NCBI GenBank assembly: GCA_947626065.1
Contig: CANQQT010000001.1
Location: 30,183-94,182 of the forward strand
Length of the DNA: 64,000 bases
Origin: an uncultured Clostridia bacterium
GTDB lineage: Bacteria; Bacillota; Clostridia; Oscillospirales; CAG-272
Direction: 5' to 3'
Both the position numbers and the translations under genes were made by a program. The notes under the pieces are model-generated. The model had not been told where the DNA came from. It worked only from the letters and a program-made list of their open reading frames with translations, and made no database searches. Below, one piece after another: positions 12,254 through 37,886 of this stretch; position 1 is the first letter of the stretch, and each line of letters opens with the position of its first letter.

Positions 12254-12728
12254 TGTTTCACGTGAAACTTTTTGCGCCATGTTGAGCAGGCTCCCCAACG
12301 CTGTGCCGAACCGGATTGTTTCACGTGAAACAGTTTTGTTCTCACCCTTGCGGGCTTCCTTTTGCGCACCCGTGTTGCATGAATTGTTTCACGCGAAACA
12401 TTTCCAGTGATTTTGCCCCGCGTGAGCATTTATCTGCCTGGGGCCTTTGTTCCACGCGAAGAATTCTTCCGCGCATTTTGTAGGACGGGCTTCTCTGATT
12501 CGGCGTTGCGCGGGTTGTTTCACGCGAAACATTTTTGTCCTCGCCCTTGTAGAGCTCCCTTTTGCGCACCCTTGTCGCATGAATTGTTTCACGTGAAACA
12601 TTTCCCCATGACTTTGCCCCACGCGAGCGCTTGCCTATCCGTCTCTTTTGTTTCGCGTGAAACATTTTCCTGTTATTTGCTCTCGTACACGCCGGTTGTC
12701 CCATGTCGCCTTTGTTTCACGTGAAACA
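12254..12728. repeat. parS: Array of eight parS (ParB-binding centromere) sites with 63-69 bp spacing
   Basis: Four sites match TGTTTCACGTGAAACA/T exactly, three carry one mismatch and one is degenerate. Per-site coordinates are given in the findings. Confidence 0.85.
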
Positions 12729-18926: not shown

Positions 18927-21440
18927 TTATTCGTTCTCTTCCGCAGAGTCGCCTGCGTCCTCCACAAGAGAAGGCTCTTCGGCCTCCTCTCCGGTTTCCT
19001 CTTCTTCCTCCTCGGAAACCACGGCCAAACCGGCGACGTGGGCTTCCCCGGCGCGCATGACAATGACGCCAGACGCCGAACGGCTATAAAGAGGAATCTC
19101 GCTGACGCGGGTCCGAATCACGACGCCCTCGTCGGTCGTCAAGAGAATATCGTCGGTCTCAGACACCGCGGCAATCGCCGCGACCCGCCCGGTCTTTTCG
19201 TTGACAAGGTGGCAACGCATCCCTTTGCCTCCGCGATTGTGGGCGGCAAATTCCTCAAAGTCGGTCCTCTTTCCGAAACCGTTTTCGGTCACGGTGAGGA
19301 GCTTCTTTTCGGGATCCACAAGGGTAATTCCGGCGACAAAATCTCCCTTTTCGGGCCGGATGCCGATCACGCCGCGGGAATTTCTCCCCGTCGGGGTAAC
19401 CGTTTTCAGCGGGAAGCGAACCGCGTTTCCTTTTTCGGTGGCGATGAGAAGCTCATCCCCGTCGGAGGCCTTCAGAACGTAGGACAGCTCGTCTCCCTCG
19501 TCAAGCGTAATGGCGCGCTTTCCGCCCTTTCTCTGATAGGCAAATTCCGAAATGGCGGTTCTCTTGACAATGCCGTTTCTCGTAATCATCGTCAGCGTTC
19601 CGTCGGAGTCAAAGTCGTCAAGGGAGACAAGCGCCGTGATTTTCTCTCCATCCTCAAGCTCGATAACGTTGACGGCCGCCGTTCCCTTGGCAGTCCGGGA
19701 GCTTTCGGGAATCAGATACGCCTTCTTCACGTGAATCTTTCCACGGTTGGTGAACATGAGGAGGAAGGAATGGGAATGGACGGCGACGACCTGATCGACG
19801 ATGTCTTCCTCCTTGGTCGTCATGCCGATGACGCCCTTTCCACCTCTTCTCTGCGCGGAATAGACGTTTGAAGGAAGCCTCTTGATGTACCCGCTCTTGG
19901 TGAGGGTAATCACGCAGGTGTGGCGCTCAATCAAATCCTCGTAGACGATTTCGTTTGCGGAGGCGACGATTTCGGTTCGGCGGGGGTTATCGTATTTGCG
20001 CTTGATTTCCGACAGATCGTTTCTTATGATATCGCGGATCCGCGACTCGTTTCTCAAAATGTCCTCAAGGTCCTCAATCAAGGCGTAGAGCTTGGCCAGC
20101 TCGTCCTCCACCTTCTGCCTCTCAAGGCCGGTGAGCTTTCCGAGAGTCATCTCGACGATGGCCTGCGCCTGATCCTCCGAGAGGGAGAAGCGGGTGCAAA
20201 GCGTCTGCTTCGCGGCGGGAATCGACTCGGCGGTTTTCATGATTTCGACGATTTCGTCGATGTTGTCGATCGCGATCTTGTAGCCCTCCAAAATATGGGC
20301 TCTTGCCTTCGCTTTGGATAAGTCGAAAACCGTCCGGTTGCGGATAACGCTCTCCTGATGCTCGATGTAATAGTCGAGAACCTGCGGCAGGGAGAGAATC
20401 TTCGGCTCCCCGCCGACAATGGCAAGCATATTGATGGAGCAGGTATCCTCCAGCTGAGAATATTTGTAAAGCTGATTCAGAAGAACCGTTCCGTTCGCGT
20501 CCCGGCGGTAGTCGAAAACGATGCGGATTCCGTTTTTGTTCGATTCGTCCCGGACGTCGACGATGCCGTCGATCTTTTTCTCCTTGACAAGGTTGGCGAT
20601 GGCCTCAATCAGCATACTCTTGTTCACCATATAGGGAATTTCGGTGACAATAATCTGCCGCTTGTCCTCGTCTATTTCGGCCTTGGCGCGTACCATGACG
20701 CGGCCCTTGCCGGTCGTGTAGGCCTCAAGGATTCCGTTGACGCCGTAAATGGTCCCCCGGGTCGGGAAATCGGGGCCCTTTATATATTCCATCAGCTGAG
20801 GAACCGTGCAGTCGGGATGATCCATCCGGAAAATCGTCGCGTCGCAGACCTCCCCGAGGTTGTGAGGAGGAACGTTGGTGGCCATACCGACGGCGATGCC
20901 CACCGCGCCGTTGACAAGGAAATTCGGGAACCGGGAGGGAAGAACCGACGGCTCGTCCCGGGTGTTGTCGAAGTTCTTGTCCATCTTGACGACGTTCTTT
21001 TCCATATCCCGCATCATCTCGTCGGAGAGCCGCGACAGCCGCGCCTCGGTGTAACGGTAGGCGGCGGGGGGGTCTCCGTCGATGGAGCCGAAGTTTCCCT
21101 TTCCCTCGACAAGAGGATAGCGATAGGAGAAATCCTGCGCCATTCTCACCATCGTTCCGTAGACGGCGGCGTCCCCGTGGGGATGATAGCGGCCCAGCAC
21201 ATCGCCGACGGTCGTCGCCGATTTGCGGAAAGGATTGTCGTGGGTCAGATTGTCCTCATACATGGTATAAAGGATTCTTCTCTGCCCCGGCTTCATCCCG
21301 TCCCGGACGTCCGGCAGCGCGCGGGAAATGATGACGCTCATGGAGTACTGCATGAAGGAATTTTTGACTTCCTTTTCCATTCCTACGTCAACGATTTTCT
21401 GATCCGGAAATTCGTAACTGACTTTTTCTTCTCTGCTCAT
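18927..21440 (-). CDS. gyrA: DNA gyrase subunit A
   Basis: AAMRYTE-type active-site region ([10 protein letters not shown]), the QRRGGKG GyrA box and an acidic tail. The start is placed at ATG 21440 (MSREEK...); the track ORF extends 17 codons further. Confidence 0.95.
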
Positions 21441-21507
21441 TCCTGTCCCTTTCTTTTTGGCGGCAAACGCCAAGCGTTTTCCTTCCGCCAAAGCTTATGC
21501 GTACCGT

Positions 21508-21830
21508 TTTTCCACAGGTTTTTCCCCATGGTTTTCCACAGACTTTTCCCTGTGGAAAATTTCTTTGATCTCTTTTTTGTTTTCCCTTTTAAGCGGGAAA
21601 AATCGATTTTTCCACAAAAGACTGTGGATAACTTTCGGCTTTTTGTGGAAAAGCTTCCTTCGCTTTTCCGTTTGTCTTCCCTTTTCCCCTAACTTTTCCA
21701 CAAGGCGCGTTCCTTGCCTTTCGGCTCCATGCCTGTCCTTTTTGAGGGGAAGAGTAGGGTTTTCCACAGAATTTTTCACTCTGTGGAAAGAGGATTTTTC
21801 AACGAAAATCAGATATCCAGATTTTCCACA
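21508..21830. promoter_or_regulatory. Cluster of 10 DnaA boxes in the gyrB-gyrA spacer (the last lies inside the gyrB 3' end)
   Basis: Six TTTTCCACA boxes, three TGTGGAAAA/G boxes, and one perfect TGTGGATAA at 21623-21631. Full coordinates are given in the findings. Confidence 0.75.
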
Positions 21831-23758
21831 TAGCGGGCGTTCTGCGCGATAAATTCCCGACGTGGCTCCACGTCGTCCCCCATCAGGAGGGAGAACATTT
21901 CGTCGCAGGCCATCGCGTCCTCCACCGTGACACGCAGAAGCGTCCGGCGGTCGGGATCCATCGTCGTCTCCCAAAGCTGTTCGGGATTCATTTCGCCAAG
22001 ACCTTTGTAGCGGTCGACGCGGATCTTATCGCTTCCTCCGAATTTCTCGATGCAGACGTCCCTTTCCTCGTCGGTAAAGGCGTAGAGCTCCTCCCCTTTT
22101 CCCGATTTCCGGTTGATCTTATAAAGCGGCGGCTGGGCAAGATAAACGTGCCCGTCCTCGATCAGCTTTCTCATATGGCGGAAGAAGAAGGTGAGAATCA
22201 GAATTCGGATATGGGAGCCGTCGACGTCGGCATCCGCCATGATGATGATTTTCCCGTAGCGGAGCTTTTCGATGTCAAATTCCGTTCCGATGCCGCACCC
22301 GAGAGCCTGAATGATGGGAATCAGCGACAGGTTGGAATAGACCTTGTCGGCCCTTGTCTTTTCGACGTTCAGAACCTTTCCACGAAGGGGAAGAATCGCC
22401 TGAAATTTGGAGTTTCTCCCCATTTTGGCGGAGCCTCCCGCGGAATCTCCCTCGACAAGGAAGAGCTCCGTCACGTCGACGTTCTTTTCCTGACAGTCGG
22501 CGAGCTTTCCGGGAAGGGCGGAGCCTCCGCCGAGAACGCTCTTTCTCGTCTGCTCCCGGGCCTTTCGGGCGGCCTCCCGCGCACGGGAAGCGGTGATGGC
22601 CTTTTCAAGAATGACCTTGGTCACCGCGGGATGCTCTTCAAAATATTCTCCCAGCTTTTCGCTGACAAGATTGTCGACAAAGACGCGGATGTCGGAATTT
22701 CCGAGCTTTCCCTTCGTCTGTCCCTCAAACTGCGCGTCGCGAAGCTTGACGCTGATCACAGCCGTCAGCCCCTCGCGGGTGTCCTCTCCCGAGAGGTTTT
22801 TGTCGTCCTTCTTCAAAATTCCCTTTTGCCTTGCATAGTCGTTGATGACCTTGGTAAGAGCGGTTTTGAAGCCGGTTTCATGGGTTCCCCCCTCGGGGGT
22901 AATGATGTTGTTGGCGAAGGACATGATCGTTTCGTCGTATTTGTCTGTATACTGAAAAGCGATTTCCGCCGTCGTGAATTCCTTCTGCGCCTTCATATAG
23001 ATGACTTCGTCGTTTAAAAAGCCGCAGTGCTTCAGCTTGTTCAAATGCTCGACAAAGCTGACGATTCCCCCTTCGTAGTGAAGAACCGTCTCACGGACGC
23101 TGTTTTCTTCCTCGTCCCCGTCCTTTTCTTCAAGTTTCCTTTCGTCCCGAAGAACGATGCGGACGCCGGGATTCAAAAACGCCTGCTCACGCATCCGATT
23201 TAGAAGTATCGAATAATCGAAGGTCGTCTCCTCAAAAATTTCCTTGTCGGGCAGAAAACGGACGTAAAGTCCCCGTTTGTCGGTCTTTCCCACGTAGGTA
23301 AAGCGTTCGTCGGGCTTGCCGCGCTTAAAGCTTCCTTTATAGGTCTCCCCGTTGTAGGTGTCCTCGTAAATCAGCCACTCCGAAAGGGCGTTGACAACGG
23401 AGGCGCCGACTCCGTGAAGGCCTCCGGAAATGTTGTATCCGCTCCCGCCGAATTTTCCTCCCGCGTGAAGAATCGTAAAGACGACCTCGGGCGTCGGAAT
23501 CTTCATTTTGTGGTGAATGGCGGTCGGAATGCCGCGCCCGTTGTCCTGAACGGAAACGCTCCCATCCTCGTGAAGCGTGATGACGATGTTGTCACACTCC
23601 CCAGCCAGCGCCTCGTCGATGGAGTTGTCGACGATTTCGTAAATCAGATGATGCAGTCCGTGGGAGCTGACGTCTCCGATGTACATTCCGGGACGTTTTC
23701 TTACCGCTTCCAGCCCCTCCAACACCTGTATTTGATTTTCGTCGTAAATCTGCGTCAT
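21809..23758 (-). CDS. gyrB: DNA gyrase subunit B
   Basis: GHKL ATPase N-terminus (LEAVRKRPGMYIG), Toprim motifs (EGDSAGG, PLRGK) and DADVDGSHI. Confidence 0.97.
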   Translation of the reverse strand: MTQIYDENQIQVLEGLEAVRKRPGMYIGDVSSHGLHHLIYEIVDNSIDEALAGECDNIVITLHEDGSVSVQDNGRGIPTAIHHKMKIPTPEVVFTILHAGGKFGGSGYNISGGLHGVGASVVNALSEWLIYEDTYNGETYKGSFKRGKPDERFTYVGKTDKRGLYVRFLPDKEIFEETTFDYSILLNRMREQAFLNPGVRIVLRDERKLEEKDGDEEENSVRETVLHYEGGIVSFVEHLNKLKHCGFLNDEVIYMKAQKEFTTAEIAFQYTDKYDETIMSFANNIITPEGGTHETGFKTALTKVINDYARQKGILKKDDKNLSGEDTREGLTAVISVKLRDAQFEGQTKGKLGNSDIRVFVDNLVSEKLGEYFEEHPAVTKVILEKAITASRAREAARKAREQTRKSVLGGGSALPGKLADCQEKNVDVTELFLVEGDSAGGSAKMGRNSKFQAILPLRGKVLNVEKTRADKVYSNLSLIPIIQALGCGIGTEFDIEKLRYGKIIIMADADVDGSHIRILILTFFFRHMRKLIEDGHVYLAQPPLYKINRKSGKGEELYAFTDEERDVCIEKFGGSDKIRVDRYKGLGEMNPEQLWETTMDPDRRTLLRVTVEDAMACDEMFSLLMGDDVEPRREFIAQNARYVENLDI

Positions 23759-23791: not shown

Positions 23792-24028
23792 TTATTCAAT
23801 CCGCCCCGAAAGGGAAGCGGTGGAAATTTGAGAGAAAAACACTTCGTTTTTTTCGGTGAGAATAAAGGATTTCGGAAGCTCCTCCCGCAAAAGGGAAATT
23901 TCCCCCGCCTGGTCGGCCCTCTTTAAAAAGGCCTTGGTATCGGGCGAAATAGTGGCGGTATCCATATCGAAAATTCCGACGATTTCCTTAAGTCGGATGT
24001 TTTTGCTGTTTCCGGCGTGAAGGTACAT
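23792..24028 (-). CDS. remB: DUF370 protein (RemB/YaaB-like)
   Basis: 78 aa, with IVGIFDMD and the canonical position between recF and gyrB. Confidence 0.8.
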   Translation of the reverse strand: MYLHAGNSKNIRLKEIVGIFDMDTATISPDTKAFLKRADQAGEISLLREELPKSFILTEKNEVFFSQISTASLSGRIE

Positions 24029-24036: not shown

Positions 24037-25116
24037 CTATTCTGCGGCGCTCAGTTTTCCGCCTCTTACAAAATAAAGCTTGGCCTTGGTAGAAATTTTT
24101 TCGCAGGAGGTGATGATGACCTGACGGCCGGAAATTCCGTGAAGGAGATACTCCCGGCGCCCAGAGTCAAGCTCGGAAAGAATATCGTCGAAAAGGAATA
24201 CCGGGTATTCTCCGTCCTTTTCCTTGGATATTTCCCCCTCGGCAAGCTTCATCGCAAGGGCAAGCGAACGCTGCTGTCCCTGAGAGGCAAAGGCTCTCGC
24301 TTCTTTTCCGCAGTGCTCAATTTTGATATCGTCCTTGTGAATCCCGTATAAAGTCGTACCGAATTTCAGCTCCCGCTCGGTATTGGAGGTAAGGAGCTTA
24401 AAATATTCCTCTTCGGTTTTATAAGAGGTATAAGAGAGGGAGGCACTTTCCTTCCCGCCCGTCATATCGGAAAGAAGAGAGGAAACAAGAACATTCAGCT
24501 TTTCCACGTAGACGCTTCTCTTTTCGGAGAGAAGAGCCGCCTCTTTGGCTAGTCGTTCCGACCAGATTTCCGCCTGAGAAAGGAAGATGGAATCGTCGTG
24601 CTTTTCCCTGCTCAGACGGATCAAAGCGTTTCTCTGGGCGAGAAGCCGGCTATAGAGCTGTAAAACCTTTAAATACAGAGGGTCGATCTGAGAAATGGCG
24701 GTATCAAGAAAGCGCCTTCTCACCGCGGGACCGTCCTTGACAAGGGAGAGATGCTCGGGACAGAAGAGGACGGCGCGGAAATTTCCCACAACCTCGGAAA
24801 GCTTCGTCAAAAAGACGCCGTTTTTTTTGCAGATTCGCTTTCCGCTTTCGGGAATCCATTTTAAGGACATCAAGCAGTCGCGCTTTCCGTCAAAATAGGT
24901 CATGGAAATTTCGGAAAAGGGCGCGCCGAAGCGCACAAGCTCGCTTTCGTGAAGGGTACGAAAGCTTCTTCCCCCGGCAAAGACAAAGATGCCTTCCAAA
25001 GTATTGGTCTTTCCCTGCCCGTTTTCGCCGTTCAGAACGGTGACTCCTTCGGAGGGGATCAGCTCCGCTTCCTCAAGATTTCGAAAATTTCGATAGACAA
25101 CCTTCCGGCAGATCAT
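24037..25116 (-). CDS. recF: DNA replication and repair protein RecF
   Basis: Walker A GENGQGKTN, signature SQGQQRS, Walker B LFDDILSELD. Confidence 0.95.
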   Translation of the reverse strand: MICRKVVYRNFRNLEEAELIPSEGVTVLNGENGQGKTNTLEGIFVFAGGRSFRTLHESELVRFGAPFSEISMTYFDGKRDCLMSLKWIPESGKRICKKNGVFLTKLSEVVGNFRAVLFCPEHLSLVKDGPAVRRRFLDTAISQIDPLYLKVLQLYSRLLAQRNALIRLSREKHDDSIFLSQAEIWSERLAKEAALLSEKRSVYVEKLNVLVSSLLSDMTGGKESASLSYTSYKTEEEYFKLLTSNTERELKFGTTLYGIHKDDIKIEHCGKEARAFASQGQQRSLALAMKLAEGEISKEKDGEYPVFLFDDILSELDSGRREYLLHGISGRQVIITSCEKISTKAKLYFVRGGKLSAAE

Positions 25117-25120: not shown

Positions 25121-26272
25121 TCAATGGTTGGAAAGAATGCGAACCGGAAGAATCAGAAGAAGAAAGCTTCTACCCTCTTCCTTCTCGCTCGGTTCAATCG
25201 TCATGCCCATTAAGGAAGAGGTAAGGGAAAGCTTGATCTTTTCGCAGTCACAGACGCGGACGGCCTCGCAAAGGGCGCGGCAGTCAAAGCCGATTTCAAT
25301 CGGCTCCCCTTCTTGAAGAACGGAAAATTCGTCGTTGAAGCGTCCGGTGATGGAGGAGCAGGAAAGAAAGAGGGTGCCTTCTTCAAATTTGCAGATGACG
25401 GGGCTTTTGATCTGTCCCTGCTGTTTGTCCTCGGTGACAAGAAGAGCCCTTTCAAGAGCCGTCAGAAAGTCTCTTGTGTCCATGGTGACAAAAATCTTCG
25501 ACGATTTGGGAAGAAAGCGTTCGTAATCGAGAGGCGTGGCCTCAATCAGACGGGTGAAAAGGGTAAATCCTCCTACGTAGAAGACGACGTGCTTTCTCGC
25601 CAGCCGAACCGTCACCTTTTCGTCGCTGTCGTCAATGAATTTCAAAAGCTCGGAAACCGTTTTTCCGGGAACGATGATGTTGAAGAGATTGTCCTCCCGC
25701 TGAGGCTTCATCTCATCGCTCTTTTCTCTGAAAAGAGCCATTCGCTTCCCGTCGCAGGAGACAGCGGTCAGCGTGTTGTCGGCGACAATCAGATTTAAGC
25801 CGTTAAATTCGGGACGGGGACTGTCGGAGGCGATGGTCACAAGGGTTTTCTGAAATACGGTTTTTAAGGCCCCTTGAGAAACGGTAATTTCGTTTTCTCC
25901 CGTCAGGTCGGGAAGATTCGGAAATTCGTTCGCGTTCAAAGCGCCAAGCTCAAAACGGACGGTTCCTCCGGAAATGTGGGCTCGGTAGGTCTTTTCGTCA
26001 ACCTCAATGACAAGCTCTCCCTCCGGCATGGAACGGAGAATTTGAAGAAGACGGAAGGAATTGATGACGGCGGCTCCCTGCTCGATAACCTTGCAGGAGA
26101 AAGAGGACTGAAAGCCCTTTTCAAGGTCAAAGGCCGTCAGGTCACAGGAATTCTCGCTTGTAGCGCTGAAGAGAATTCCTTCTGTTGAGGCAATGGTATT
26201 TTTGTTTGAAGCAAAGCCTGCGGAGGGAAGAGCTGCGGTGAGAAGGTCGTTTTTTTCAACAATGAGTTTCAT
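25121..26272 (-). CDS. dnaN: DNA polymerase III beta sliding clamp
   Basis: 383 aa, with the typical N-terminus (MKLIVEKNDLL) and a position immediately downstream of dnaA. Confidence 0.95.
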   Translation of the reverse strand: MKLIVEKNDLLTAALPSAGFASNKNTIASTEGILFSATSENSCDLTAFDLEKGFQSSFSCKVIEQGAAVINSFRLLQILRSMPEGELVIEVDEKTYRAHISGGTVRFELGALNANEFPNLPDLTGENEITVSQGALKTVFQKTLVTIASDSPRPEFNGLNLIVADNTLTAVSCDGKRMALFREKSDEMKPQREDNLFNIIVPGKTVSELLKFIDDSDEKVTVRLARKHVVFYVGGFTLFTRLIEATPLDYERFLPKSSKIFVTMDTRDFLTALERALLVTEDKQQGQIKSPVICKFEEGTLFLSCSSITGRFNDEFSVLQEGEPIEIGFDCRALCEAVRVCDCEKIKLSLTSSLMGMTIEPSEKEEGRSFLLLILPVRILSNH

Positions 26273-26284
26273 GTCGGCTCCTTT

Positions 26285-26516
26285 CGGATGAGAAAAAAAT
26301 TTTCGCGGGAAAAAGAGAAAGAGAATAGATATTTATAGTCGTAAGTAGTAGGGCCTGTGGAAAATGGGGAAAGAGGAAAAAAGGGCGCGGTGACGGGACA
26401 AGCCGGGAAAAATTCTCAATTTTTTGCTGTGGACAGGCTGAGGAAAAAGGTTGAGAAAAAGGCTTGAAAAGGAGCTGTTGAAAACCTGTGGAGAAAAGCT
26501 TGAGACTTTTTCCACT
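26285..26516. other. oriC: oriC core in the dnaA-dnaN spacer: AT-rich tract, DnaA-trio-like triplets, GC cluster and 4 DnaA boxes
   Basis: AT-rich tract at about 26285-26342. AAG TAG TAG at 26343-26351 and GGCC at 26352-26355. Boxes TGTGGAAAA 26356-26364, TGTGGACAG 26428-26436, TGTGGAGAA 26487-26495 and TTTTCCACT 26508-26516. Confidence 0.65.
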
Positions 26517-26544
26517 TTTCACTTTTGAAAGGAATAAAGATTTT

Positions 26545-27957
26545 TTATTCCTGACGAATGGAACGGATTAAATCGTTGAGCTCCGTTTCAAACTCCGGGT
26601 CGGAGGCCATTCTCTTTTCCACCGTGTCGATGGAATTGATGATGGTGGTGTGATCGCGGTTGAATTCCTTTCCGATGGCGGGAAGGGAGCGGTCGGTCAG
26701 CTTTTTGATGATGTAGACGGCGACGTGACGGGCCGTGGCGATGTTGCTTGTCCGCTTTTTGCTCTTGATGTCCTCCACGGGGATGTTGTAGTGGGAAGAA
26801 ACCGAGTGGAGAATTTTGTCTATGGTGACGCTGACGGGCTCAGAGCCGACGATTTTGTCGGAGAGACAGCGCACAGCGAGGTCGAGGGTGATGTCGGCGC
26901 CGGTCAGCATACTCTGCGCACCGATTTTTTTCACGGCGCCTTCCAGCTGACGGACGTTGCTCTTTAAATTTTCCGCAATGTAGGTCATCACGTCATCGGG
27001 GACGGTGATGCCGAGGGCGGAGGCCTTCAATTTGATGATGGCAATTCGGAGCTCAAGGTCGGGTGGCTCGATGTCGGCGGAAAGGCCGGACTCAAAGCGG
27101 GAGCGGAGACGGTCCTCAAGGAGCTTGATGTCGCGGGGAGGACGGTCGGAAGTCAGAATAATCTGGCGGTTGTGCTCGTAAAGGTCGTTGAAGGTGTGGA
27201 AAAATTCCTCCTGCGTGGCCGGTCGGCCGGCGATGAACTGAATGTCGTCGATGAGAAGAACGTCGGATTTTCGGTATTTCTCTCGAAATTCCGAATTCAG
27301 ATTCTTGCTGATCGAATCGATCATCTGATTGGTGAATTCCTCTCCCTTGACGTAGACCACCTTGTAGTCGGGAAAATTCTTTTTTATACGCTCGGTGATG
27401 GCGTAGAGAAGATGAGTTTTTCCGAGTCCGGAGGGGCCGTAGATGAAGAGAGGATTGTATTGCCGGGCGGGGTGAGTAGCCACCGCGAGGGCCGCGGCGT
27501 GGGCAAATTTGTTGGAGTTTCCTACAACAAAATTTTCAAAGGTGTATTCCGAAAAGGCGGCGGGAACGGAGGCGCGGTTCAGAACCTTCGCTGAGCCGAC
27601 GGTGGAGTAAAAGTCGGTTTCCGGATTGATTTTCCTGTCGTTCTTCTCTACCTCCACCTTCATTTTTTCGGTGATTTCCTCCTCCGATTCAAGAGAGCGG
27701 ACAGAGACGGACACGGGAAAGCCGAGAACCTGTGCGAGGGAAGAGGAGATTTTGTCCAAAAACCGTTTGGTGATGATGTCCCGCTTGAAATTGCTTTTGG
27801 CGAGAAAAACGGCGGTATCCTCGGTAAGGATCGAGAGCTTGAGGTCGGAAAACCAAAGCCTTAAGGAGGTCTCGTCGAGATCGTTCTGATTTTTCATTTT
27901 TTCCAGTGTTTGAGACCAGATCTCATCAAAAGGAGAAACGTCGGAAAAAGAAGTCAT
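26545..27957 (-). CDS. dnaA: Chromosomal replication initiator protein DnaA
   Basis: AAA+ Walker A GPSGLGKTHL, LLIDDIQF, and the domain IV signature (HTTIINS). Confidence 0.97.
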   Translation of the reverse strand: MTSFSDVSPFDEIWSQTLEKMKNQNDLDETSLRLWFSDLKLSILTEDTAVFLAKSNFKRDIITKRFLDKISSSLAQVLGFPVSVSVRSLESEEEITEKMKVEVEKNDRKINPETDFYSTVGSAKVLNRASVPAAFSEYTFENFVVGNSNKFAHAAALAVATHPARQYNPLFIYGPSGLGKTHLLYAITERIKKNFPDYKVVYVKGEEFTNQMIDSISKNLNSEFREKYRKSDVLLIDDIQFIAGRPATQEEFFHTFNDLYEHNRQIILTSDRPPRDIKLLEDRLRSRFESGLSADIEPPDLELRIAIIKLKASALGITVPDDVMTYIAENLKSNVRQLEGAVKKIGAQSMLTGADITLDLAVRCLSDKIVGSEPVSVTIDKILHSVSSHYNIPVEDIKSKKRTSNIATARHVAVYIIKKLTDRSLPAIGKEFNRDHTTIINSIDTVEKRMASDPEFETELNDLIRSIRQE

Positions 27958-27996: not shown

Positions 27997-29472
27997 TTAA
28001 AGAAGTCTCGGAAAAAGCGATTTCATCGAGGGATAAATTTCTTTGAATTTGCGGTATTTTTCCTCATAGCGGGAGACGAGGAGAGGGTTTGGTTCTTCTT
28101 GAGAGGAGAAGGAAACCAAGCTTTGACAGGCTTCTTCTACAGAAGAAAATTTTCCACAGCAAACCATGGAAAGCAAAGCCGCGCCGTAGCCGGGCCCTTG
28201 TTCCTTTTCGGGAAGGGTGAGCGTGAGGGAAAGAACCGAGGAGAGAATTTTGCGCCAGAGGGGAGATTTTGCCCCTCCTCCGCAAAGGGAGGCCCTTGGG
28301 AGTGAAGGAAGTCCCGCCTCCTCAAAACAGTCGCGAAAAGCGAAAGCAACGCCTTCAAGGACCGCAAGCGTCATCTCCTCTCGCGTCGTGTCGAGGGAAA
28401 GGCCGAGGAAGGCGCCTCTTGCAAAGGGATCGTTTAAAGGACTCCTCTCTCCCATCAGATAGGGAAGAAAGAAGAGATGCCCGGTGCCGAGGGCGTCGGG
28501 GGAAATCTTTTTTTGCTCTCCTGCAAGATCGGAGGTGTTTAAAATCTTCTCTGTCCACCAGCCGAAGGCGCTTGCGGCTGAGAGAATGCAGCCGAGAAGG
28601 CACCAGCTTCCGTCGGCGTGGGCAAAGGAGTGAATGGCCCCCGAGGGGTCGGAAAGAAAGCGACTTGAGGAGAGAAAAAGCGTGCCGGAGGTTCCGAGGG
28701 AAAGGTTGCATTTCCCGTTTCCCACCGTGCCGGTGCCGACGGCGGCCGCCGCGTTGTCTCCGGCTCCCGCGCAGACAAGAACCGAAGAAGGAAGCCCAAA
28801 ATTTTTGGCGAGAGAAGGGAGAAGAGTGCCGACGGGGGCGTAGCTTTCATAAAGGGTGGGGAGCTGATTCTCTTCGATGCCGCAGAGGGTGAGCATTTTC
28901 TTCGACCAAACTTTCTTTTCCACATTCAGAAGAAGGGTTCCGGAAGCGTCGGAGTAATCGGTGGAGAAAACGCCGGTCAAAAGATAGACGAGATAATCCT
29001 TCGGAAGGAGAATTTTTCTTATCCTCTGAAATTTTTCCGGTTCATGCTCCTTCATCCAAAGGAGCTTGGGCGCGGTAAAGCCGGGAAAAGCGAGGTTGGA
29101 GGTCTCCTCCTTTAAGGTCTCTTTTCCGATCGAAGCATTGAGAAAGGAGGTTTCTTTTTCTGTCCGGTTGTCGTTCCAGAGAATCGCCGGACGAAGGGAA
29201 AGAAAATTTTCGTCAAGGGCCACAAGCCCGTGCATCTGCCCTGCAATGCCGATTCCGCGAAGATTTTTCTTTTCCTCTTCTGAGAGAAAAGAGGGCAGGG
29301 CAGAGAAAAGCGCGTCCCGCCAGTCCTCCGGGCGCTGCTCACACCAGCCGTCGGCGGGAAACAGAAGCGGGTAATTTTTTGAAAGCTCCCTTTTCACATT
29401 CCCGAGCCCGTCCACAAGAAGAAGCTTCATCGAAGAGGTTCCCAGGTCAATGCCGAGAAAATAGTCCATCAA
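27997..29472 (-). CDS. FGGY-family carbohydrate kinase (xylulokinase-like)
   Basis: N-terminus GIDLGTSSMK, GQMHGLV, and the C-terminal GGGAKS motif. Confidence 0.85.
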   Translation of the reverse strand: MMDYFLGIDLGTSSMKLLLVDGLGNVKRELSKNYPLLFPADGWCEQRPEDWRDALFSALPSFLSEEEKKNLRGIGIAGQMHGLVALDENFLSLRPAILWNDNRTEKETSFLNASIGKETLKEETSNLAFPGFTAPKLLWMKEHEPEKFQRIRKILLPKDYLVYLLTGVFSTDYSDASGTLLLNVEKKVWSKKMLTLCGIEENQLPTLYESYAPVGTLLPSLAKNFGLPSSVLVCAGAGDNAAAAVGTGTVGNGKCNLSLGTSGTLFLSSSRFLSDPSGAIHSFAHADGSWCLLGCILSAASAFGWWTEKILNTSDLAGEQKKISPDALGTGHLFFLPYLMGERSPLNDPFARGAFLGLSLDTTREEMTLAVLEGVAFAFRDCFEEAGLPSLPRASLCGGGAKSPLWRKILSSVLSLTLTLPEKEQGPGYGAALLSMVCCGKFSSVEEACQSLVSFSSQEEPNPLLVSRYEEKYRKFKEIYPSMKSLFPRLL

Positions 29473-29747: not shown

Positions 29748-31295
29748 TTATTTGGCGTAATCGATCGCACGGCTTTCGCGGATCAGGTGAATCTTGATCT
29801 GCCCGGGGTATTCCATACTGGACTCGATCTTCTTTACAATTTCCCGCGCGGTGAGGACCATCTGGTCGTCGTTGATTTCCTCCGGCTTGACCATGACGCG
29901 GATTTCGCGTCCTGCCTGAATGGCAAAGGATTTTTCGATGCCGGGGAAGGAATTGGCGATTTCCTCCAGCTTCTGAAGTCTCTTCAGATAGTTTTCAAGA
30001 TCCTCGCGGCGGGCTCCGGGTCTTGCCGCGGAAATGGCGTCGGCCGCCTGAACGATGACGGCGACGACCGTTTGAGGCTCAACGTCGTTGTGATGCGCTT
30101 CAATCGCGTGAATGACGTCGCGGTTTTCCTTGTATTTTCTCGCAATGTCAATTCCGATCTGAACGTGGGAGCCCTCCACCTCCTGCGTCATGGCCTTTCC
30201 GATGTCGTGGAGCAGGCCGGCGCGTTTGGCAAGGGTGCTGTCGACGCCGAGCTCGTCGGCGATAATTCCGGCAATATGGGAAACCTCGATGGAATGATCC
30301 AGTACGTTTTGCCCGTAGCTGGTGCGGTAGCGGAGACGGCCGAGGAGCTTGACAAGCTCGCTGTTGAGTCCGTGAACACCGGTTTCAAAGGTGGCGCGGT
30401 CGCCGGCCTGTTTGATGATGTTCTCGACCTCCCGACGGGCCTTTTCGACGGTTTCCTCAATCCTTGTCGGATGAATCCGCCCGTCGGAAATCAGCTTTTC
30501 AAGAGCCAATCTTGCAATTTCGCGTCTTATGGGGTCAAAGCAGGACACCGTGATGGTTTCCGGCGTGTCGTCGATGATGAGATCGACGCCGGTCATCGTT
30601 TCGATGGTCCGTATGTTCCGCCCTTCCCGTCCGATGATGCGGCCCTTCATGTCGTCGTTGGGAAGAGAGACGACGGAAACGGTCGCTTCCGAGACGTGGT
30701 CGGCGGCACAGCGCTGAATAGCAAGGGAAATGATTTTCTTCGCCTTCTGATCGGCGCTTTCCTTGAGCTGCGATTCGATTTCGACGATTTTCATCGCCGC
30801 CTCGTGCTTGATGTCGCCTTCGATCTGACGAATCAGCTCCGCCTTGGCGTCCTCGCGGGAGAGGCCGGCGACGGCTTCCAGCTTATCCAGCTGTTGCTGC
30901 TTGATCTGCTCGGTCTGCTCGACGAGGTCGGTCTGTTCCTTGATTTTGCGGTTCAGGACTTCTTCCTTGTGCTCGTAGCTTTCAATCTTTTTCTCAAGGG
31001 TCTCTTCCCGCTGAACGGCGCGCCGCTCAAGTCTTGTGACTTCGTTTCTGCGCTCTTTGATTTCCCGTTCCGCTTCGTTCTTATCCTTGAGAATCTTTTC
31101 CTTGGCTTCAAGCAGGGCTTCCTTTTTCAAGGATTCCGCTGTCTTTTCGCTGTCTTCGATGATCCGTTGTGCCTGCTGTTCCGCGGATCCGATTTTCGCT
31201 TCCGAGATTTTTTTACGGATAAGGAAGCCGACGAGGCCGCCGAGCAAAGCGCCGACGACGGCACAAACAGCGCAGAGAATAACTTTTTCTACCAT
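29748..31295 (-). CDS. rny: Ribonuclease Y
   Basis: N-terminal TM helix, coiled coil, KH domain ([12 protein letters not shown]) and HD domain (LLHDIGK). Confidence 0.95.
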
Positions 31296-32558: not shown

Positions 32559-33470
32559 ATGGAAGAGGTTCGCCTTTGCAGTCTTTGTCCCCGGGCGTGT
32601 CTTGTCGACCGGCGGCGGGAGCGCGGGGCTTGCGGCTGCGGAGAGACGCTCCGCGTGGCAAGGGCCGCGCCTCATTTTTGGGAGGAACCCTGTCTTTCCG
32701 GGAAAAACGGTTCGGGGACGGTCTTTTTTTCCGGCTGTAACCTTCGCTGTATTTTCTGCCAGAACCGCCCGATTTCCTCCGGCTATGAAGGGCTCGATAT
32801 TTCCGTCGAGCGGCTGAGCGAAATTTTTCTCGAGCTTCAGTCGGCAGGCGTGCACAACATCAACCTCGTGACGCCGACGCCGTGGGCAGACAAAATCAAA
32901 GCCGCGCTGAACCGCGCGTGGAAAAACGGCCTTTTTCTTCCGGTTATCTACAATTCCGGCGGATACGAGCGGGTGGAGACGCTGAGGGCCCTGCGGGGAG
33001 ATATCAGCATCTATCTGCCCGATTTCAAATATATGGACGAGGCGCTCGCCGAGAGGCTTTCCGGCGCCGCCGACTACCCCGAGCAGGCCAAACGAGCGCT
33101 TGCCGAAATGATGGAACAGCGGGGACGGGCGGTCTTCGACCGGGACGGAATGATGACGCGGGGCGTGCTTGTCCGCCACCTGGTTTTGCCGGGTCACAGC
33201 GACGACTCGGTGAAATTTCTTGACTATCTGAGAGCGGAATACCGGGACGACATCTGGGTCAGCATTATGAATCAGTATACGCCGATGCCGGGCATGAAGG
33301 GAGAGCTGGCGAACCGTCTTTCGGTGGAGGAATACCGGGCGGTGACCGACTATGCGCTTTCTATAGGCTTCAAAAACGGATTTTTTCAGGAGGGAGAGGC
33401 GGCGGCCGAGAGCTTCGTTCCGGAGTGGAACGGCCTGGGCGTTCTTTCCCCGCGGCAGTCGGGGGCATAG
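32559..33470 (+). CDS. Radical SAM protein, PflX-like (putative glycyl-radical/other activase family)
   Basis: CNLRCIFCQN cluster motif preceded by a Cys-rich N-terminus (CSLCPRAC...CGC). Confidence 0.8.
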   Translation: MEEVRLCSLCPRACLVDRRRERGACGCGETLRVARAAPHFWEEPCLSGKNGSGTVFFSGCNLRCIFCQNRPISSGYEGLDISVERLSEIFLELQSAGVHNINLVTPTPWADKIKAALNRAWKNGLFLPVIYNSGGYERVETLRALRGDISIYLPDFKYMDEALAERLSGAADYPEQAKRALAEMMEQRGRAVFDRDGMMTRGVLVRHLVLPGHSDDSVKFLDYLRAEYRDDIWVSIMNQYTPMPGMKGELANRLSVEEYRAVTDYALSIGFKNGFFQEGEAAAESFVPEWNGLGVLSPRQSGA

Positions 33471-33563
33471 CTCCCTTTTGACGGTCTTTTCCGTTTCCGT
33501 TTTGTGAGTCTTCTTTCTTTTTTTGCCGGGCCCCAACGGTGAGGAGGAAGGAAGGCGATTTTT

Positions 33564-35963
33564 TTGCGACTCTTTTTTGACGCCGTGGAGAAAAGGCCCC
33601 TGCTTTTCTTTCTTGCGAGCTTTTCCTGCACGGTGTTTTTTCTCGGATTTGCGGGAATGACGGTGCGGTTTTTTGCCGTGCTGTTTTTTCTTTTCTGCGC
33701 GGCGGGGCTTTTTCTTTTCAAGCTCCTTTCCCCTTTTCGCTCAAAGACCCTTCCGGTCTCTCATCTCGTTTCCCTCTTCCTCGCCGCGTCTCTTGGCGCC
33801 GGGAATTCCTTTCTTTTCTCTCTTTCGGTCGAAAAGGTCACATCCTATGCGGGTAAAAGCGTGCGGGTCGTCGCTCAGGTGATGGAGGTCGATTTCGTTT
33901 CCGATTATGCCGCCTCTTATACCGTCAGAGTAAAGCAGATCGACGGGGAAAAGACGGAATTTCCCGCCAAGCTCTCCTTTGAGCGGGAGTATACCGCCGC
34001 GCGGGACGACCTTCTCACCCTTTCGGTAACCTTTTCCCTTCCGGAAGAATCGGCGGACGGCTTTCCGCTTCGGAACTATTACGCCTCAAAGGGAATCTAT
34101 CTTGTGGCGGAGGTAGAGGAAGGAGAGATCCTTTTTTCCGAGGGATCCCCCGGGCCCCTCTCCTTTTTCCGCTCCCTGTCCGACCGCCTGACGGCCAAGC
34201 TGCGCTTCTGGATGAAGGAGGAGACGGGAGGGCTGGCCTCCGCGCTTCTTTTGGGGAGAAGGGAGGAGCTTTCCGACCGACAGAAACGGGATTTTCGCTT
34301 TTTGGGCCTCTCGCATCTCCTGGCGATAAGCGGTCTGCATCTCTCGGTGCTTGTCGGAGGATGGGATTTTCTTCTCCGGCTGGCGAGACTTCCCCGGCGG
34401 CTCCGTTTTGTCCTTGACACGGCGCTGATTTTCTTCTTTCTCTTCCTCGTCGGCTTCCCCGCCTCCCTTTTGCGGGCGGGCATCATGATGATTCTTTACC
34501 TTGCGGCGGGCTGTTTTGGCCGCCGTCCCGATTCCCTCACCTCTCTTTTTGTCGCCGTTTCGGTCATCCTTCTTTTCACCCCTTCCTCGGCGACCGACGT
34601 CGGTCTCCTTCTCTCCTTCTCCTCCACCCTCGGGCTGGTCACGCTCGGCAGTCGGCTCTCGGGGGCCATCGGGAGAAAAACGAGGGAAAAATCCCTGCTT
34701 ATCCGGTGGGGCGGGAGGCTTCTTTCCTCAATATGTGTCACCCTGTCGGCGGTTTTCTTCACGCTTCCGGTGACGTGGCTCTTTTTCGGGGAGTTTTCTG
34801 TCGTCTCCCCTCTCAGCAATCTTTTCGCCGTTCCCCTCTCGGCGGTTTTTCTCTTCCTTTCGGTGGGCGTTCTTCTCCTTACCGGCGGGCCTCTCTTCAC
34901 CTTCTTCCTTCACGCCGCCGTCGCGGTGGGCAATCTGCTCTTGTATACGGTGAGCTTTTTCGGAGAAAGGGTTCCGGAGCCGGTCTCTCTTCGCTACGGA
35001 TTTACGCCCTTTGCCTTCCTCGCCGCCGCGCTTTCCCTTTTGCTTCTTTTTAAGATAAAGCCAAGGAAAACGCGGCATTTTTTGCTTCCCCTCGCGGTTT
35101 GGGCCGCGGTTTTCAGCGTCGGATGGGCGAGCGCCGTGCTTATGCGGGGAGACCGCGCGGTTCTGCTCGCCGTCAACAGAGGGAAAAACGACTATCTCCT
35201 CATCGAAAGCCACGGGAAAACGCTTCTCTGCGACTTTTCGGACGGGAGCTACAGCAATCTTTCCCGCGCAGCGGAGCTCTGCAAGCAGGAGCTGAACGAT
35301 TCTTCCCTTGACGTCCTGCTCCTTACGCATCTTCACAACCGCCATATCGCCACCTTCCGCCGCCTGTCGGAGAGTCACCGGCTGACGCTTCTGTACCTGC
35401 CGGAGCCCTACGATGAAAAAACGGAGGAGATTGCGGGGGAGCTGATCAAGGAAGCGGAGGCGCGCGGGATTTCCGCTCTTCTCTATCCCTCGGAAGGTCC
35501 CGCGACCCTTTCCTTCTTCTCCTGCGAAATCACCCTGCCGGGCATCGCTTTTCTTTCCCGCTCGGTTCAGCCGATGGTAGGACTTCTTGTAGAGGCGGAG
35601 GGGCAGGCGTTCGGGTATATCGGCTCGTCGGCCTTTGAGTCGGAGGATCCCGCCTTCTTTGTCTCGGCAGTCGATCGGGCCACCTTCCTCTGGTTCGGCA
35701 TTCACGGGCCGATTGGGAAAAAGCCGCTTCCGGCGTTTCCGGAACGGGTGGGGGAAGAGGTACTTCTTTCTTCTGAGGAGGGCCGCGACCTTCTCCTTTC
35801 TGCCAATCCGACGCTTGCTCCCGACTGCCTACAGGGGGAGGGCGAAAACTTCCGCCGCGTAGTTCTCGAAAAAGAAAGGGCCGGGAGGAGCTTCTATCTG
35901 CCGGTCAGCACGGCGAATCTCCTGCACGAAAGAAAGCGTACCGCGCTTCAACCCCTTCGGTAA
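33564..35963 (+). CDS. comEC: DNA internalisation-related competence protein ComEC/Rec2
   Basis: A polytopic competence domain followed by a C-terminal metallo-beta-lactamase-like region (LLLTHLHNRH). TTG start after GAGGAGGAAGGAAGG. Confidence 0.8.
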   Translation: MRLFFDAVEKRPLLFFLASFSCTVFFLGFAGMTVRFFAVLFFLFCAAGLFLFKLLSPFRSKTLPVSHLVSLFLAASLGAGNSFLFSLSVEKVTSYAGKSVRVVAQVMEVDFVSDYAASYTVRVKQIDGEKTEFPAKLSFEREYTAARDDLLTLSVTFSLPEESADGFPLRNYYASKGIYLVAEVEEGEILFSEGSPGPLSFFRSLSDRLTAKLRFWMKEETGGLASALLLGRREELSDRQKRDFRFLGLSHLLAISGLHLSVLVGGWDFLLRLARLPRRLRFVLDTALIFFFLFLVGFPASLLRAGIMMILYLAAGCFGRRPDSLTSLFVAVSVILLFTPSSATDVGLLLSFSSTLGLVTLGSRLSGAIGRKTREKSLLIRWGGRLLSSICVTLSAVFFTLPVTWLFFGEFSVVSPLSNLFAVPLSAVFLFLSVGVLLLTGGPLFTFFLHAAVAVGNLLLYTVSFFGERVPEPVSLRYGFTPFAFLAAALSLLLLFKIKPRKTRHFLLPLAVWAAVFSVGWASAVLMRGDRAVLLAVNRGKNDYLLIESHGKTLLCDFSDGSYSNLSRAAELCKQELNDSSLDVLLLTHLHNRHIATFRRLSESHRLTLLYLPEPYDEKTEEIAGELIKEAEARGISALLYPSEGPATLSFFSCEITLPGIAFLSRSVQPMVGLLVEAEGQAFGYIGSSAFESEDPAFFVSAVDRATFLWFGIHGPIGKKPLPAFPERVGEEVLLSSEEGRDLLLSANPTLAPDCLQGEGENFRRVVLEKERAGRSFYLPVSTANLLHERKRTALQPLR

Positions 35964-35986
35964 TCGGATTTGCGTATCTTTGAGCC

Positions 35987-36016
35987 AAAAAAACCGCCGC
36001 GAAAAACCCGCGGCGG
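35987..36016 (-). terminator. Terminator of the sigma-fusion gene (also follows comEC on the plus strand)
   Basis: CCGCCGCG-aaaaacc-CGCGGCGG, with a T7 run on the minus strand. Confidence 0.75.
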
Positions 36017-36027
36017 CCAAAAGCTTT

Positions 36028-37707
36028 TTATTCAATTATCAAAACCATCGGGCAAGGGGGTTGATTCACGCCGCTGCCGTCGTCATCATAATGGCCGTCA
36101 TACAGCTTGCCTCGCGAAATGGCCTCTCTTATCGTGACAAAAAGCATCGCATTATCTGCATACAGATATTGTTTCTGTAGGGGTACACTGTTCAGATGCG
36201 TGGGGATTTCCTGCTTCTTTCCTTTTAAAAATTCGGAAAGTCTATCCTTTAAATCTTTTGCCATTTTGCTTTTTGCATCCTTGCAGATGCTCCACAGAAC
36301 GTCTGCCTCGTCCTGATGAAGAACCGGAACATTTATAACAGGCTTCCCGGCCTCTTCCCTGAAAATTTTGCATTTGATAAGCCAAGGGATCGCCTTGAGA
36401 TATTCGGGATTAAAGCCTACGCTTTCGGGATCGATCCCTTTGTACATAATATAAAGCAGCTTTGTAATCTCGGCGTCAATACAGGTATTTTCCGGGAAGA
36501 AGGTATATTCGTCCGAATAAGAATAGTCGTAACAGGGAAATCCGTCCGCGCCGTATACGTGCATTTCAAGCATATTCCCGTCGGCATATTTATCAAATGT
36601 TACGATCCTTTCGCCAGAATAAGAATGTGCCAACAGCGCGGCGTGCTCTTTGGGGTCAAATGCTTTGAAATTAACATGACCGAAGGCAATCCATCGTCCG
36701 CCGTTGGGACGGTTGCGGAACCGCTGTTCCGTATCGAATATGCTTGAGAAGGCCGCGTAAATTCCGTAATCAAGACAATGAAACGCAACGTACAATTCAA
36801 GCGCGTTCTTTGCGTCGAACGAACACCTTTTATAAAATTCACACCGGCGGAGCTTCTCAAGGCCGGTTTCAATGCCGTTCCAAAACAGCTCAAAATGACG
36901 GTTCACAAACGCTTTCTGCTCAGGAATATACTTTTCCATGTCCTCCAAAGTGGATATCATAAAATCGGTATAGTATTTATTTCCCACATTTTTCATGAGC
37001 TCGCCCTCCGTCAGCCTTTGCACGATTGGCTCCACGTATGCGGTCGGAATGCCGATGGACGACGCGATATCTTCTATGGCGATCGGTTTAGAGTAGGCAA
37101 TCCACAAAATATTTTGTGCGATCCGATCTTTTTCGATAAGGGTGTTCGGTTCTCCGTTTAATCCGGGTTTTCCGCTGTGAGAAAGCGATAGCGTTATCGG
37201 CGAATAGCTCTGCTTTGCAAATTTTTCCATATTGTTCATTCCTTTCTTTACACGATTCCTGCCAAGATGCAATCGGCTTTTTACGGTTCCCTCCGGGATG
37301 CCCAAATCCGACGCGATCCGACTTACGCTCTGCCCGTTCATATAGTACCGCACGATAACCTCGCGATAATTTTTGGCGAGATAGGCGACGGCACGACGAA
37401 CCTTCTCCGCTTCGTCGTCTTCAATATTCAACCGGATCGTAGCGTTCTCATCCACGATATCAAAGTCATCTCCGATACGAACGGTTGGCCGCTGATATCT
37501 TTTCCGGAGCAGGTCACTAAATTTCCGCCCCATCACGGTGAGAAGCCACGCTTTCGCGTCTTGAATCTCTTTGCCGCGTGCCATGTACGACAGCGCCGCA
37601 AGAAGCGTCTCCTGCGTCAGGTCCTCGGCGTCGTATATATTGCCGCATTTTTGCAGAGCTACAGATAACAGGAATTCTATGTGGTTTTCTAAATCCTTGC
37701 TTGGCAT
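36028..37707 (-). CDS. Sigma-70/ECF-type sigma factor (regions 2 and 4) fused to a ~370-aa uncharacterised C-terminal domain
   Basis: Region 2 (DAEDLTQETLLAAL...AWLLTVMGRKFSDLLRK) and region 4 (REVIVRYYMNGQSVSRIASDLGIPEGTVKSRLHLGR). ATG at 37707 follows AAGAGG. The gene has visibly lower GC than its flanks. Confidence 0.75.
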   Translation of the reverse strand: MPSKDLENHIEFLLSVALQKCGNIYDAEDLTQETLLAALSYMARGKEIQDAKAWLLTVMGRKFSDLLRKRYQRPTVRIGDDFDIVDENATIRLNIEDDEAEKVRRAVAYLAKNYREVIVRYYMNGQSVSRIASDLGIPEGTVKSRLHLGRNRVKKGMNNMEKFAKQSYSPITLSLSHSGKPGLNGEPNTLIEKDRIAQNILWIAYSKPIAIEDIASSIGIPTAYVEPIVQRLTEGELMKNVGNKYYTDFMISTLEDMEKYIPEQKAFVNRHFELFWNGIETGLEKLRRCEFYKRCSFDAKNALELYVAFHCLDYGIYAAFSSIFDTEQRFRNRPNGGRWIAFGHVNFKAFDPKEHAALLAHSYSGERIVTFDKYADGNMLEMHVYGADGFPCYDYSYSDEYTFFPENTCIDAEITKLLYIMYKGIDPESVGFNPEYLKAIPWLIKCKIFREEAGKPVINVPVLHQDEADVLWSICKDAKSKMAKDLKDRLSEFLKGKKQEIPTHLNSVPLQKQYLYADNAMLFVTIREAISRGKLYDGHYDDDGSGVNQPPCPMVLIIE

Positions 37708-37886
37708 TTTCGGTACCTCTTTTGAAAGCTTTCGCCTATAAGGTCGCGGCAATCGCTTCTCGGTTCAATGTTTTTCAAAAAATTTTGCAAAAACAGGGGC
37801 CGCCGCCGCAAAAATCGTCTGTTCGTCGTGTAATTTTCCTATAGGACGGATTTCCCACGTTCCACCCCTTCCGCCGGATTACAAAA

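Follow-up and report, generated by a model that had tools for sequence, protein, structure and literature searches.

A dense cluster of predicted DnaA boxes occupies the 368-bp spacer between gyrB and gyrA (21441–21808) in a 64,000-nucleotide stretch of DNA from an uncultured Clostridia bacterium (contig CANQQT010000001.1); this whole stretch is referred to below as the window. The cluster is separated from the dnaA-dnaN spacer, the other box-bearing region, by dnaN, recF, a remB-like gene and gyrB, which together span 4.7 kb. The interpretation that we favour, and to which we give an even chance, is that the gyrB-gyrA spacer is a selected, origin-proximal DnaA-box cluster (DBC) of the kind known from Bacillus subtilis, which would act as a sink for DnaA or as a regulator and would possibly affect the downstream gene. 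The cluster had first been noticed in a reading of the sequence, hereafter the original prediction.

The box cluster in the gyrB-gyrA spacer

The original prediction had listed ten boxes in this region, one of them a perfect match to the consensus, and all ten were located at the positions given there. Six boxes read TTTTCCACA (starts at 21508, 21532, 21608, 21694, 21760 and 21822) and two read TGTGGAAAA (21551 and 21644), while the perfect-consensus box, TGTGGATAA, was found at 21623. These nine match the consensus TTATCCACA with one mismatch at most and lie within 323 bp. The tenth box, TGTGGAAAG at 21782, has two mismatches to TTATCCACA and one to the local TTTTCCACA type.

The module nearest to gyrA (21508–21559; families D1, I7 and I10) consists of four tandem boxes followed by a convergent TGTGGAAAA at 21551. 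The tandem array has a 12-nt period, with starts at 21508, 21520, 21532 and 21544, and reads, degenerate copies included, TTTTCCACAggt, TTTTCCCCAtgg, TTTTCCACAgac and TTTTCCCtg. In the central module (21608–21652; families I6 and I1), TTTTCCACA at 21608 is followed by TGTGGATAA at 21623 and TGTGGAAAA at 21644. Between these box modules lies the most AT-rich stretch of the spacer (21556–21607), which is moderately unstable and free of the DnaA-trios described below. Closer to gyrB, a single TTTTCCACA box on the plus strand (21694–21702) precedes a convergent pair (21760–21790), in which TTTTCCACAG and TGTGGAAAG are separated by 13 nt. The last TTTTCCACA, also on the plus strand (21822–21830), overlaps the final gyrB codons (YVEN); it lacks conservation among relatives and could be incidental. 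Altogether, strong and degenerate copies form three convergent pairs in the spacer.

The original prediction had made its claim dependent on a box density above background, and the cluster proved to be far above it by three measures. The motif TTWTCCACA occurs 13 times in the window, while 0.70 occurrences were expected from dinucleotide shuffles and the highest count in 100 shuffles was 3; nine of the 13 sites fall in 21508–21830. As a very conservative background, the spacer itself was used to train an order-3 Markov model; it gave a mean of 2.3 sites and never reached nine in 5000 simulations. Finally, the cluster has about 23 boxes per kb versus 0.225 per kb in about 1 Mb of related loci from which the two box regions were left out, a difference of about 100 times.

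Occurrence and conservation in related genomes

A GyrB scan of one genome per species retrieved 80 loci with 62–84% GyrB identity to the window, all labelled as uncultured or unclassified Clostridia-type gut bacteria except for one contig labelled Akkermansia muciniphila (L074). A metagenome scan added L081 (86%) and L082 (82%), as well as many distant Firmicutes with 53–60% GyrB identity; some metagenome loci probably repeat species of the genome set (for example, L082/L001 and L083/L059), and the counts are not fully independent. The closest GyrB sequences belong to L081 (metagenome contig OJMN01001334.1, 86%) and L002 (contig CALWTY010000052.1 of a metagenome-assembled genome, 84%), and the nearest named relative is Firmicutes bacterium CAG:272, with 82% identity.

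Clusters were defined as at least three boxes, each with one mismatch at most, chained at distances of up to 200 bp. In the 80 genome loci, nearly all of them lay either in the dnaA-dnaN spacer or shortly past the 3' end of gyrB. In the distant metagenome loci, their places were the dnaA-dnaN spacer and the region upstream of dnaA. On a neighbour-joining tree, 11 of the 12 genomes of the GyrB clade that includes the window carry boxes downstream of gyrB; the sole cluster-less member, L002, has seven boxes in its dnaA-dnaN spacer. A gyrB-downstream cluster is also present in three further small lineages, represented by L016 and L034, by L043 and L062, and by L031, and likewise in L081, L082 and L089. 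The closest relative, L081, has four boxes in 65 bp. A 32-nt direct repeat with 84% identity between its copies (5468–5499 and 5864–5895) flanks this four-box cluster in the L081 gyrB-gyrA spacer.

The spacers cannot be aligned between relatives, with a column identity of 38%. Of the 11 related loci whose cluster is intergenic, nine have a box of the same orientation that begins 11–43 nt past the end of gyrB, and the next box after this first one is usually its convergent partner. On this comparison of sequences, the retention of boxes amid unalignable spacer is a footprint of selection on the boxes. Since the boxes are conserved and the surrounding spacer is not, the objection that the cluster could be a strain-specific repeat, which the original prediction had raised against itself, is removed; the boxes recur in the 11 clade genomes and in L081. 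A hidden gene in the spacer was considered and rejected, because the spacers do not align among relatives and the overlapping open reading frames (21457–21852 on the plus strand and 21495–21974 on the minus strand) had no Pfam match. No Rfam match was obtained for the 18–32 kb region at E ≤ 1.

The profile of the 58 gyrB-downstream boxes is identical to that of the 181 dnaA-dnaN boxes (gTTTTCCACAg), both sets favouring T at position 3 and G on both flanks. Convergent pairs with a start-to-start distance of 23–25 nt are over-represented in both kinds of cluster. With one profile at both places, DnaA would be the expected ligand at both.

Small clusters of three to five boxes were observed elsewhere near the gyrase genes in other lineages. 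They are located about 2.8–2.9 kb past the gyrA match in L142, L143 and L147, at gyrA+102 in L160, and at other positions in L146, L039 and L089 (gyrB+992). They would agree with a picture in which accessory clusters near the origin are frequent but not fixed in position.

Layout of box clusters in the lineage

The loci were divided by GyrB identity to the window into the window's lineage (at least 62%) and distant Firmicutes (less than 62%). The distant group shows the classical bipartite layout published for clostridia (PMC7561715), in that 25 of 28 loci have a cluster in the 700 bp upstream of dnaA (median of seven boxes) and 27 of 33 have one in the dnaA-dnaN spacer; rpmH is found beside dnaA in 24 of 28, and none of 62 loci has a cluster within 800 bp downstream of gyrB. 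The corresponding numbers for the window's lineage are 1/50 upstream of dnaA, 47/64 in the dnaA-dnaN spacer, 10/47 for rpmH and 17/77 downstream of gyrB. Judging from these distributions, the whole lineage has lost the upstream-of-dnaA cluster, and in most of its members only one cluster, that of the dnaA-dnaN spacer, is present, so that a second cluster is not obligatory here. The original prediction had started from the premise that Firmicute origins are normally bipartite around dnaA, and for this lineage the premise has to be corrected. The cluster downstream of gyrB is confined to the lineage without an upstream cluster (Fisher p = 2.6e-5, uncorrected for shared ancestry).

The predicted origin in the dnaA-dnaN spacer

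The dnaA-dnaN spacer (26273–26544, minus strand) is the predicted origin proper, of the oriC2 type, and contains two strong boxes and several weak ones. The two boxes with one mismatch at most are at 26356 and 26487, and the gyrB-gyrA spacer is richer in boxes than this one, as the original prediction had stated.

A basal unwinding system (BUS) is made up of a box or a box pair, a short GC-rich gap, and then DnaA-trios, 3'-[G/A]A[T/A]-5' (PMC8287927). We searched for at least three DnaA-trios and a GC-rich gap within 16 nt of a box or box pair, and such a predicted module was found on the minus strand at 26343–26373. It comprises CTTTCCCCA and TTTTCCACA (26364–26356), GGCC, and the trios CTA CTA CTT (26351–26343), and the gene strand from 26373 down to about 26320 reads CTTTCCCCA-TTTTCCACA-GGCC-CTA CTA CTT-ACGACTATAAATATCTATT. 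On the complementary strand, the trios (CTACTACTT) read 3'-GAT GAT GAA-5'. An AT-rich candidate DNA unwinding element (DUE; 26311–26350) abuts the trios; the 40-mer at 26311, with −42.55 kcal/mol (99.75th percentile), is one of the ten 40-mers of lowest stability in the window. In form, the module is nearly identical to the oriC2 trio sequence of Clostridioides difficile, 5'-CACCTACTACTATTAC / 5'-CACCTACTACTATTACTAC (PMC7561715). An equivalent module is located near dnaN in the dnaA-dnaN spacer of most relatives examined (L002, L005, L008, L010, L014, L016, L023, L034, L062 and L081), and a weaker one in L004. In the sub-clade formed by L005, L008, L015 and L023, the best match to the remB-like protein of the window is found between dnaA and dnaN rather than between recF and gyrB, and the origin boxes come after it.

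A strict trio regular expression found no BUS module or trio motif on either strand of the gyrB-gyrA spacers of the window and 17 cluster-positive relatives, although the power of this negative result is limited, since the same expression overlooks many visually obvious modules in the dnaA-dnaN spacers of relatives. The least stable 40-mer of the gyrB-gyrA spacer (21554–21593; −45.4 kcal/mol) is at the 99.08th percentile and has no adjoining trios. Since the module and the adjoining AT-rich element were found in the dnaA-dnaN spacer and no such module in the gyrB-gyrA spacer, the predicted origin proper, with the likely strand-opening site, is assigned to the former. The cumulative GC skew of the 64-kb window has its minimum at about 23.3–25 kb, between the two box-bearing spacers, and therefore cannot discriminate between the two clusters.

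Possible function of the cluster

The features of the gyrB-gyrA spacer that characterise DBCs are multiple near-consensus intergenic boxes placed outside the unwinding region, here 4.7 kb from the predicted unwinding module. The lack of an unwinding module, the near-consensus boxes and the patchy distribution are best fitted by a DBC-like role. Patchiness is illustrated by L002, which with 84% GyrB identity is cluster-less at unaltered gene order, and by the bulk of the lineage, in which the dnaA-dnaN cluster stands alone. The small clusters at other origin-proximal sites, such as those downstream of gyrA in L142, L143, L147 and L160, also fit an accessory role. Among the three readings offered by the original prediction (a displaced half of the origin, a titrating or regulatory cluster, and control of gyrA), the second fits best to what proves to be a real origin-proximal cluster shared between species, while control of gyrA alone has lost ground.

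In B. subtilis, the regions richest in boxes are those to which DnaA binds in vivo, and they need the lowest DnaA concentration for binding in vitro (PMC4447404). From the known behaviour of DnaA and of box clusters, the nine to ten boxes of the window cluster would be expected to bind this protein with high affinity, and DnaA oligomers would be nucleated on the convergent pairs and on the tandem array with its 12-nt period. A fork starting at the dnaA-dnaN trios and passing through dnaN, recF and gyrB would copy the cluster within seconds of initiation, since it lies only 4.7 kb into the dnaN-through-gyrA replichore, and the copying would double a strong DnaA sink right beside the origin. The doubled sink could then draw DnaA off the box-poor origin, lower the amount of free or origin-bound DnaA and delay re-initiation. 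DnaA titration has been put forward to explain how the B. subtilis DBCs near oriC, and likewise datA in Escherichia coli, act. As a secondary effect, DnaA sitting on the transcribed spacer may modulate read-through into, or initiation at, gyrA (or mreC); for gyrA such modulation is probable, because the cluster fills the spacer in front of this gene.

Several observations weigh against a simple sink and would fit a partner of the origin at least as well. The cluster is present only in the lineage without the upstream-of-dnaA cluster (17/77 versus 0/62; not corrected for phylogeny). The origin spacer of the window has only two strong boxes, while that of the cluster-less L002 has seven. Both clusters share one box grammar, and a pure sink need not be so precisely anchored past the gyrB stop codon.

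One could therefore hypothesise that the origin is split, an explanation that we regard as possible but rather doubtful. The gyrB-gyrA cluster would then be the relocated box-rich half, a counterpart of oriC1, and DnaA would bridge both clusters, looping out the 4.7 kb from dnaN through recF and remB to gyrB, as a requirement for efficient unwinding at the dnaA-dnaN trios. Besides the shortage of strong boxes at the origin and the convergent-pair module common to both clusters, the reciprocal layout speaks for this, the upstream cluster prevailing in the distant loci (25/28) and the gyrB-downstream one occurring only in the lineage that retains the former in 1 of 50 loci. Nine to ten boxes within 323 bp and no DUE resemble clostridial oriC1 regions, which have 9–19 boxes (PMC7561715). 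Furthermore, a DUE-less cluster of at least three boxes besides a DUE-bearing one, as in an oriC1-type arrangement, is present. However, the second property of this arrangement, sub-regions flanking dnaA, is lacking, since the cluster lies downstream, past dnaN, recF, the remB-like gene and gyrB. Known halves flank dnaA at a distance of about 1.4 kb from each other, and 4.7 kb across four genes is unprecedented in the literature searched, which left most subscription journals outside its coverage. A partner is evidently not required in most of the lineage, with its dnaA-dnaN cluster only, and L005, L048 and L031 have fewer boxes, located within a coding gene. The dnaN-to-gyrB block is compact in cluster-positive loci (4.17–4.91 kb), but this is marginal (p = 0.04) and confounded by phylogeny, just as the link to the loss of oriC1 is uncorrected for it. 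A test for complementary box numbers at the two sites gave no significant result (p = 0.47); p = 0.017 was reached only with an exclusion made post hoc, and no weight is placed on it.

It is less likely still that the cluster is a transcriptional operator, at which DnaA bound in the spacer would repress, activate or roadblock gyrA, or whichever gene follows gyrB, coupling the supply of gyrase subunits to the status of the initiator with no role in initiation control. The boxes do fill the spacer before gyrA, up to 68 nt from its ATG, and gyrA is the next gene in nine of the 12 loci with an intergenic cluster, the window counted. Regulation of neighbouring genes (sda, ywlC and yydA) by DBCs has been described in B. 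subtilis (PMC3245932). In the window spacer, a promoter scan detected no sigma-70-type promoter and a terminator scan no gene-strand terminator after gyrB; transcription from gyrB therefore probably continues across the boxes into gyrA, which would suit this role, although the missing promoter itself argues against an operator. Moreover, the cluster tracks the 3' end of gyrB regardless of the gene that comes next. In L043 and L062, mreC (Pfam E = 1e-40 and 1.4e-38) comes first and gyrA lies farther downstream; in L005, L048 and L031, gyrB is followed by a pfkB-family kinase gene that harbours the boxes in its coding sequence; and in L001, L003, L008, L037 and L081 the cluster lies 280–700 bp upstream of gyrA. 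Nine to ten sites far exceed the needs of an operator, and control of gyrA by DnaA was not found in the literature searched, with the coverage stated above. Control of gyrA as the sole function is thus weakened, while a local transcriptional effect is compatible with the data.

Several further observations concern transcription across the spacer and the boxes inside pfkB. The four 'terminators' called in the window spacer were rejected, since they are on the non-coding strand and represent box palindromes. A minus-strand hairpin (21459–21489; GGCGG...AAACGC-TTG-GCGTTT...CCGCC) lies just upstream of the gyrA ribosome-binding site, and its folding energy is like that of shuffled sequences (z = −0.92). 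The boxes in the pfkB genes sit at a GVEK motif (GGT GTG GAA AAG), in L005 at 12370–12610 and also in L048, L031 and L041. This motif is duplicated in L005 (GVEKGVEKGV), with three boxes at a 12-nt spacing, and the GVEK site of L048 carries an insertion; the pfkB genes in the same position in L040, L046 and L078 are box-free. Selection of binding sites inside the coding sequence is a possible explanation of the pfkB boxes.

A role of the gyrB-gyrA spacer as a second or backup origin of its own is very improbable. Its many boxes and the moderately AT-rich segment 21554–21593 would suit such a role, and the GC-skew minimum between the two clusters cannot separate them, but the box, GC-gap and trio module is missing from both strands of this spacer in the window and in the 17 cluster-positive relatives, while the canonical module is present near dnaN in the window and most relatives; this candidate was rejected for want of the trio module and because its AT-rich stretch reaches only the percentile given above. 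Least credible of all is that the boxes are a chance or slippage repeat or the sites of another protein, as the T-rich spacer with its many degenerate TTTTCC-like copies might suggest, given that one perfect TTATCCACA box is present, the origin boxes have the same nine-base motif, down to the flanking G preference, its frequency is far beyond Markov expectation, and conservation is seen in the boxes but not in the sequence around them.

Genomic context

The cluster is part of a canonical origin gene block, all genes of which are on the minus strand according to Pfam scans. The scans identified genes for RNase Y (29748–31295) and an FGGY-family sugar kinase (27997–29472), followed by dnaA (26545–27957), dnaN (25121–26272), recF (24037–25116) and gyrB (21809–23758, with the stop codon at 21809–21811). 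A remB-like small gene (23792–24028) lies between recF and gyrB, and gyrA occupies 18927–21440, its start being taken as the ATG at 21440–21438. The GC content of 21441–21830 is 0.43 versus about 0.53–0.56 in the flanking genes. The C-terminal DNA-binding domain of the window DnaA is normal (Pfam Bac_DnaA_C, E = 2.4e-26).

Both distances quoted in the original prediction, 368 bp between gyrB and gyrA and 39 bp upstream of dnaA, were measured as stated. The 39-bp spacer is box-free and is bordered upstream by the FGGY-kinase gene, on the same strand, and then by the RNase Y gene. The usual divergent rpmH-rnpA is missing beside dnaA, and rpmH was not found anywhere in the 64-kb window. Exact TTTTCCACA boxes are also present at 27195–27203, 28150–28158 and 28916–28924, inside dnaA and the upstream FGGY-kinase gene, and the remaining roughly 58 kb of the window have none; about 0.7 would be expected in the whole window. 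These coding-region boxes might serve autoregulation of dnaA, whose promoter region is box-free, or represent low-density origin-flanking sites.

At 33000–38000, the GC skew is opposite to that of the surrounding replichore, and the GC content falls to 0.47 at 36–38 kb. The segment spans a comEC-like gene and a long opposite-strand open reading frame with a sigma-70 domain. Its inverted skew may be a strand-bias effect or mark an acquired segment.

Significance of the cluster

Origin-proximal DBCs are known as a class, but the literature searched, most subscription journals being outside its coverage, contained no account of one that lies between gyrB and gyrA, and this location appears to be without an earlier report. 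Beyond known cases are the fixed position after gyrB across a clade, the highest box density in the origin region, and the confinement to a lineage without an upstream cluster. Prediction tools and reviews treat the origins of Firmicutes as box clusters flanking dnaA; here, a large gut-associated clostridial lineage is without the upstream cluster, and one of its clades has the densest cluster fixed after gyrB.

If the cluster acts as a sink, it would extend the DBC idea to an uncultured lineage and provide a clean, positionally conserved example adjacent to an origin. If it is instead a partner of the origin, a bipartite origin would not require its halves to flank dnaA, and these could cooperate over several kilobases; a box-poor half at dnaA-dnaN and a box-rich half past gyrB would be an origin layout not described before, and origin annotation and the design of minimal replicons for these organisms would change. 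Under either reading, natural pairs are available as ready material for in vitro work, the cluster being present in L081, L001 and the window and absent from L002.

Comparison with known systems

In E. coli, datA promotes IHF-dependent hydrolysis of DnaA-ATP and is located about 470 kb from oriC; the window cluster has neither sequence nor positional homology to it. The oriCII region upstream of gidA in Pseudomonas aeruginosa is, like the window cluster, a second box region near the origin, and its role is DnaA-dependent control of the adjacent operon; however, it belongs to another phylum and gene context and was first isolated as an autonomously replicating sequence (PMC13438810).

The oriC1 (incA/incB) regions of B. 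subtilis, C. difficile and Helicobacter pylori are similar to the window cluster in being rich in boxes, lacking a DUE and being paired with a dnaA-dnaN spacer that bears the trios and the DUE. In contrast to them, the window cluster is downstream of dnaA and 4.7 kb off, while known oriC1 regions are upstream of dnaA, overlap the dnaA promoter and have their halves about 1.4 kb apart; it cannot autoregulate dnaA in the classical way.

The closest parallels are the DBCs outside oriC in B. subtilis, six in all, such as DBC[thdF-jag] and DBC[yydA-yycS] (Okumura et al. 2012, PMC3245932). The window cluster differs from all six in its location between gyrB and gyrA, in being the densest cluster of the origin region, and in its occurrence in a lineage without an upstream-of-dnaA cluster. 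Nevertheless, it shares with them a near-consensus intergenic cluster near oriC but outside the unwinding region, a location that varies between species, and a Firmicute host with the gene order dnaA-dnaN-recF-remB-gyrB-gyrA, and, as far as can be predicted from its sequence, it would be expected to bind DnaA stably and may regulate its neighbouring genes as they do.

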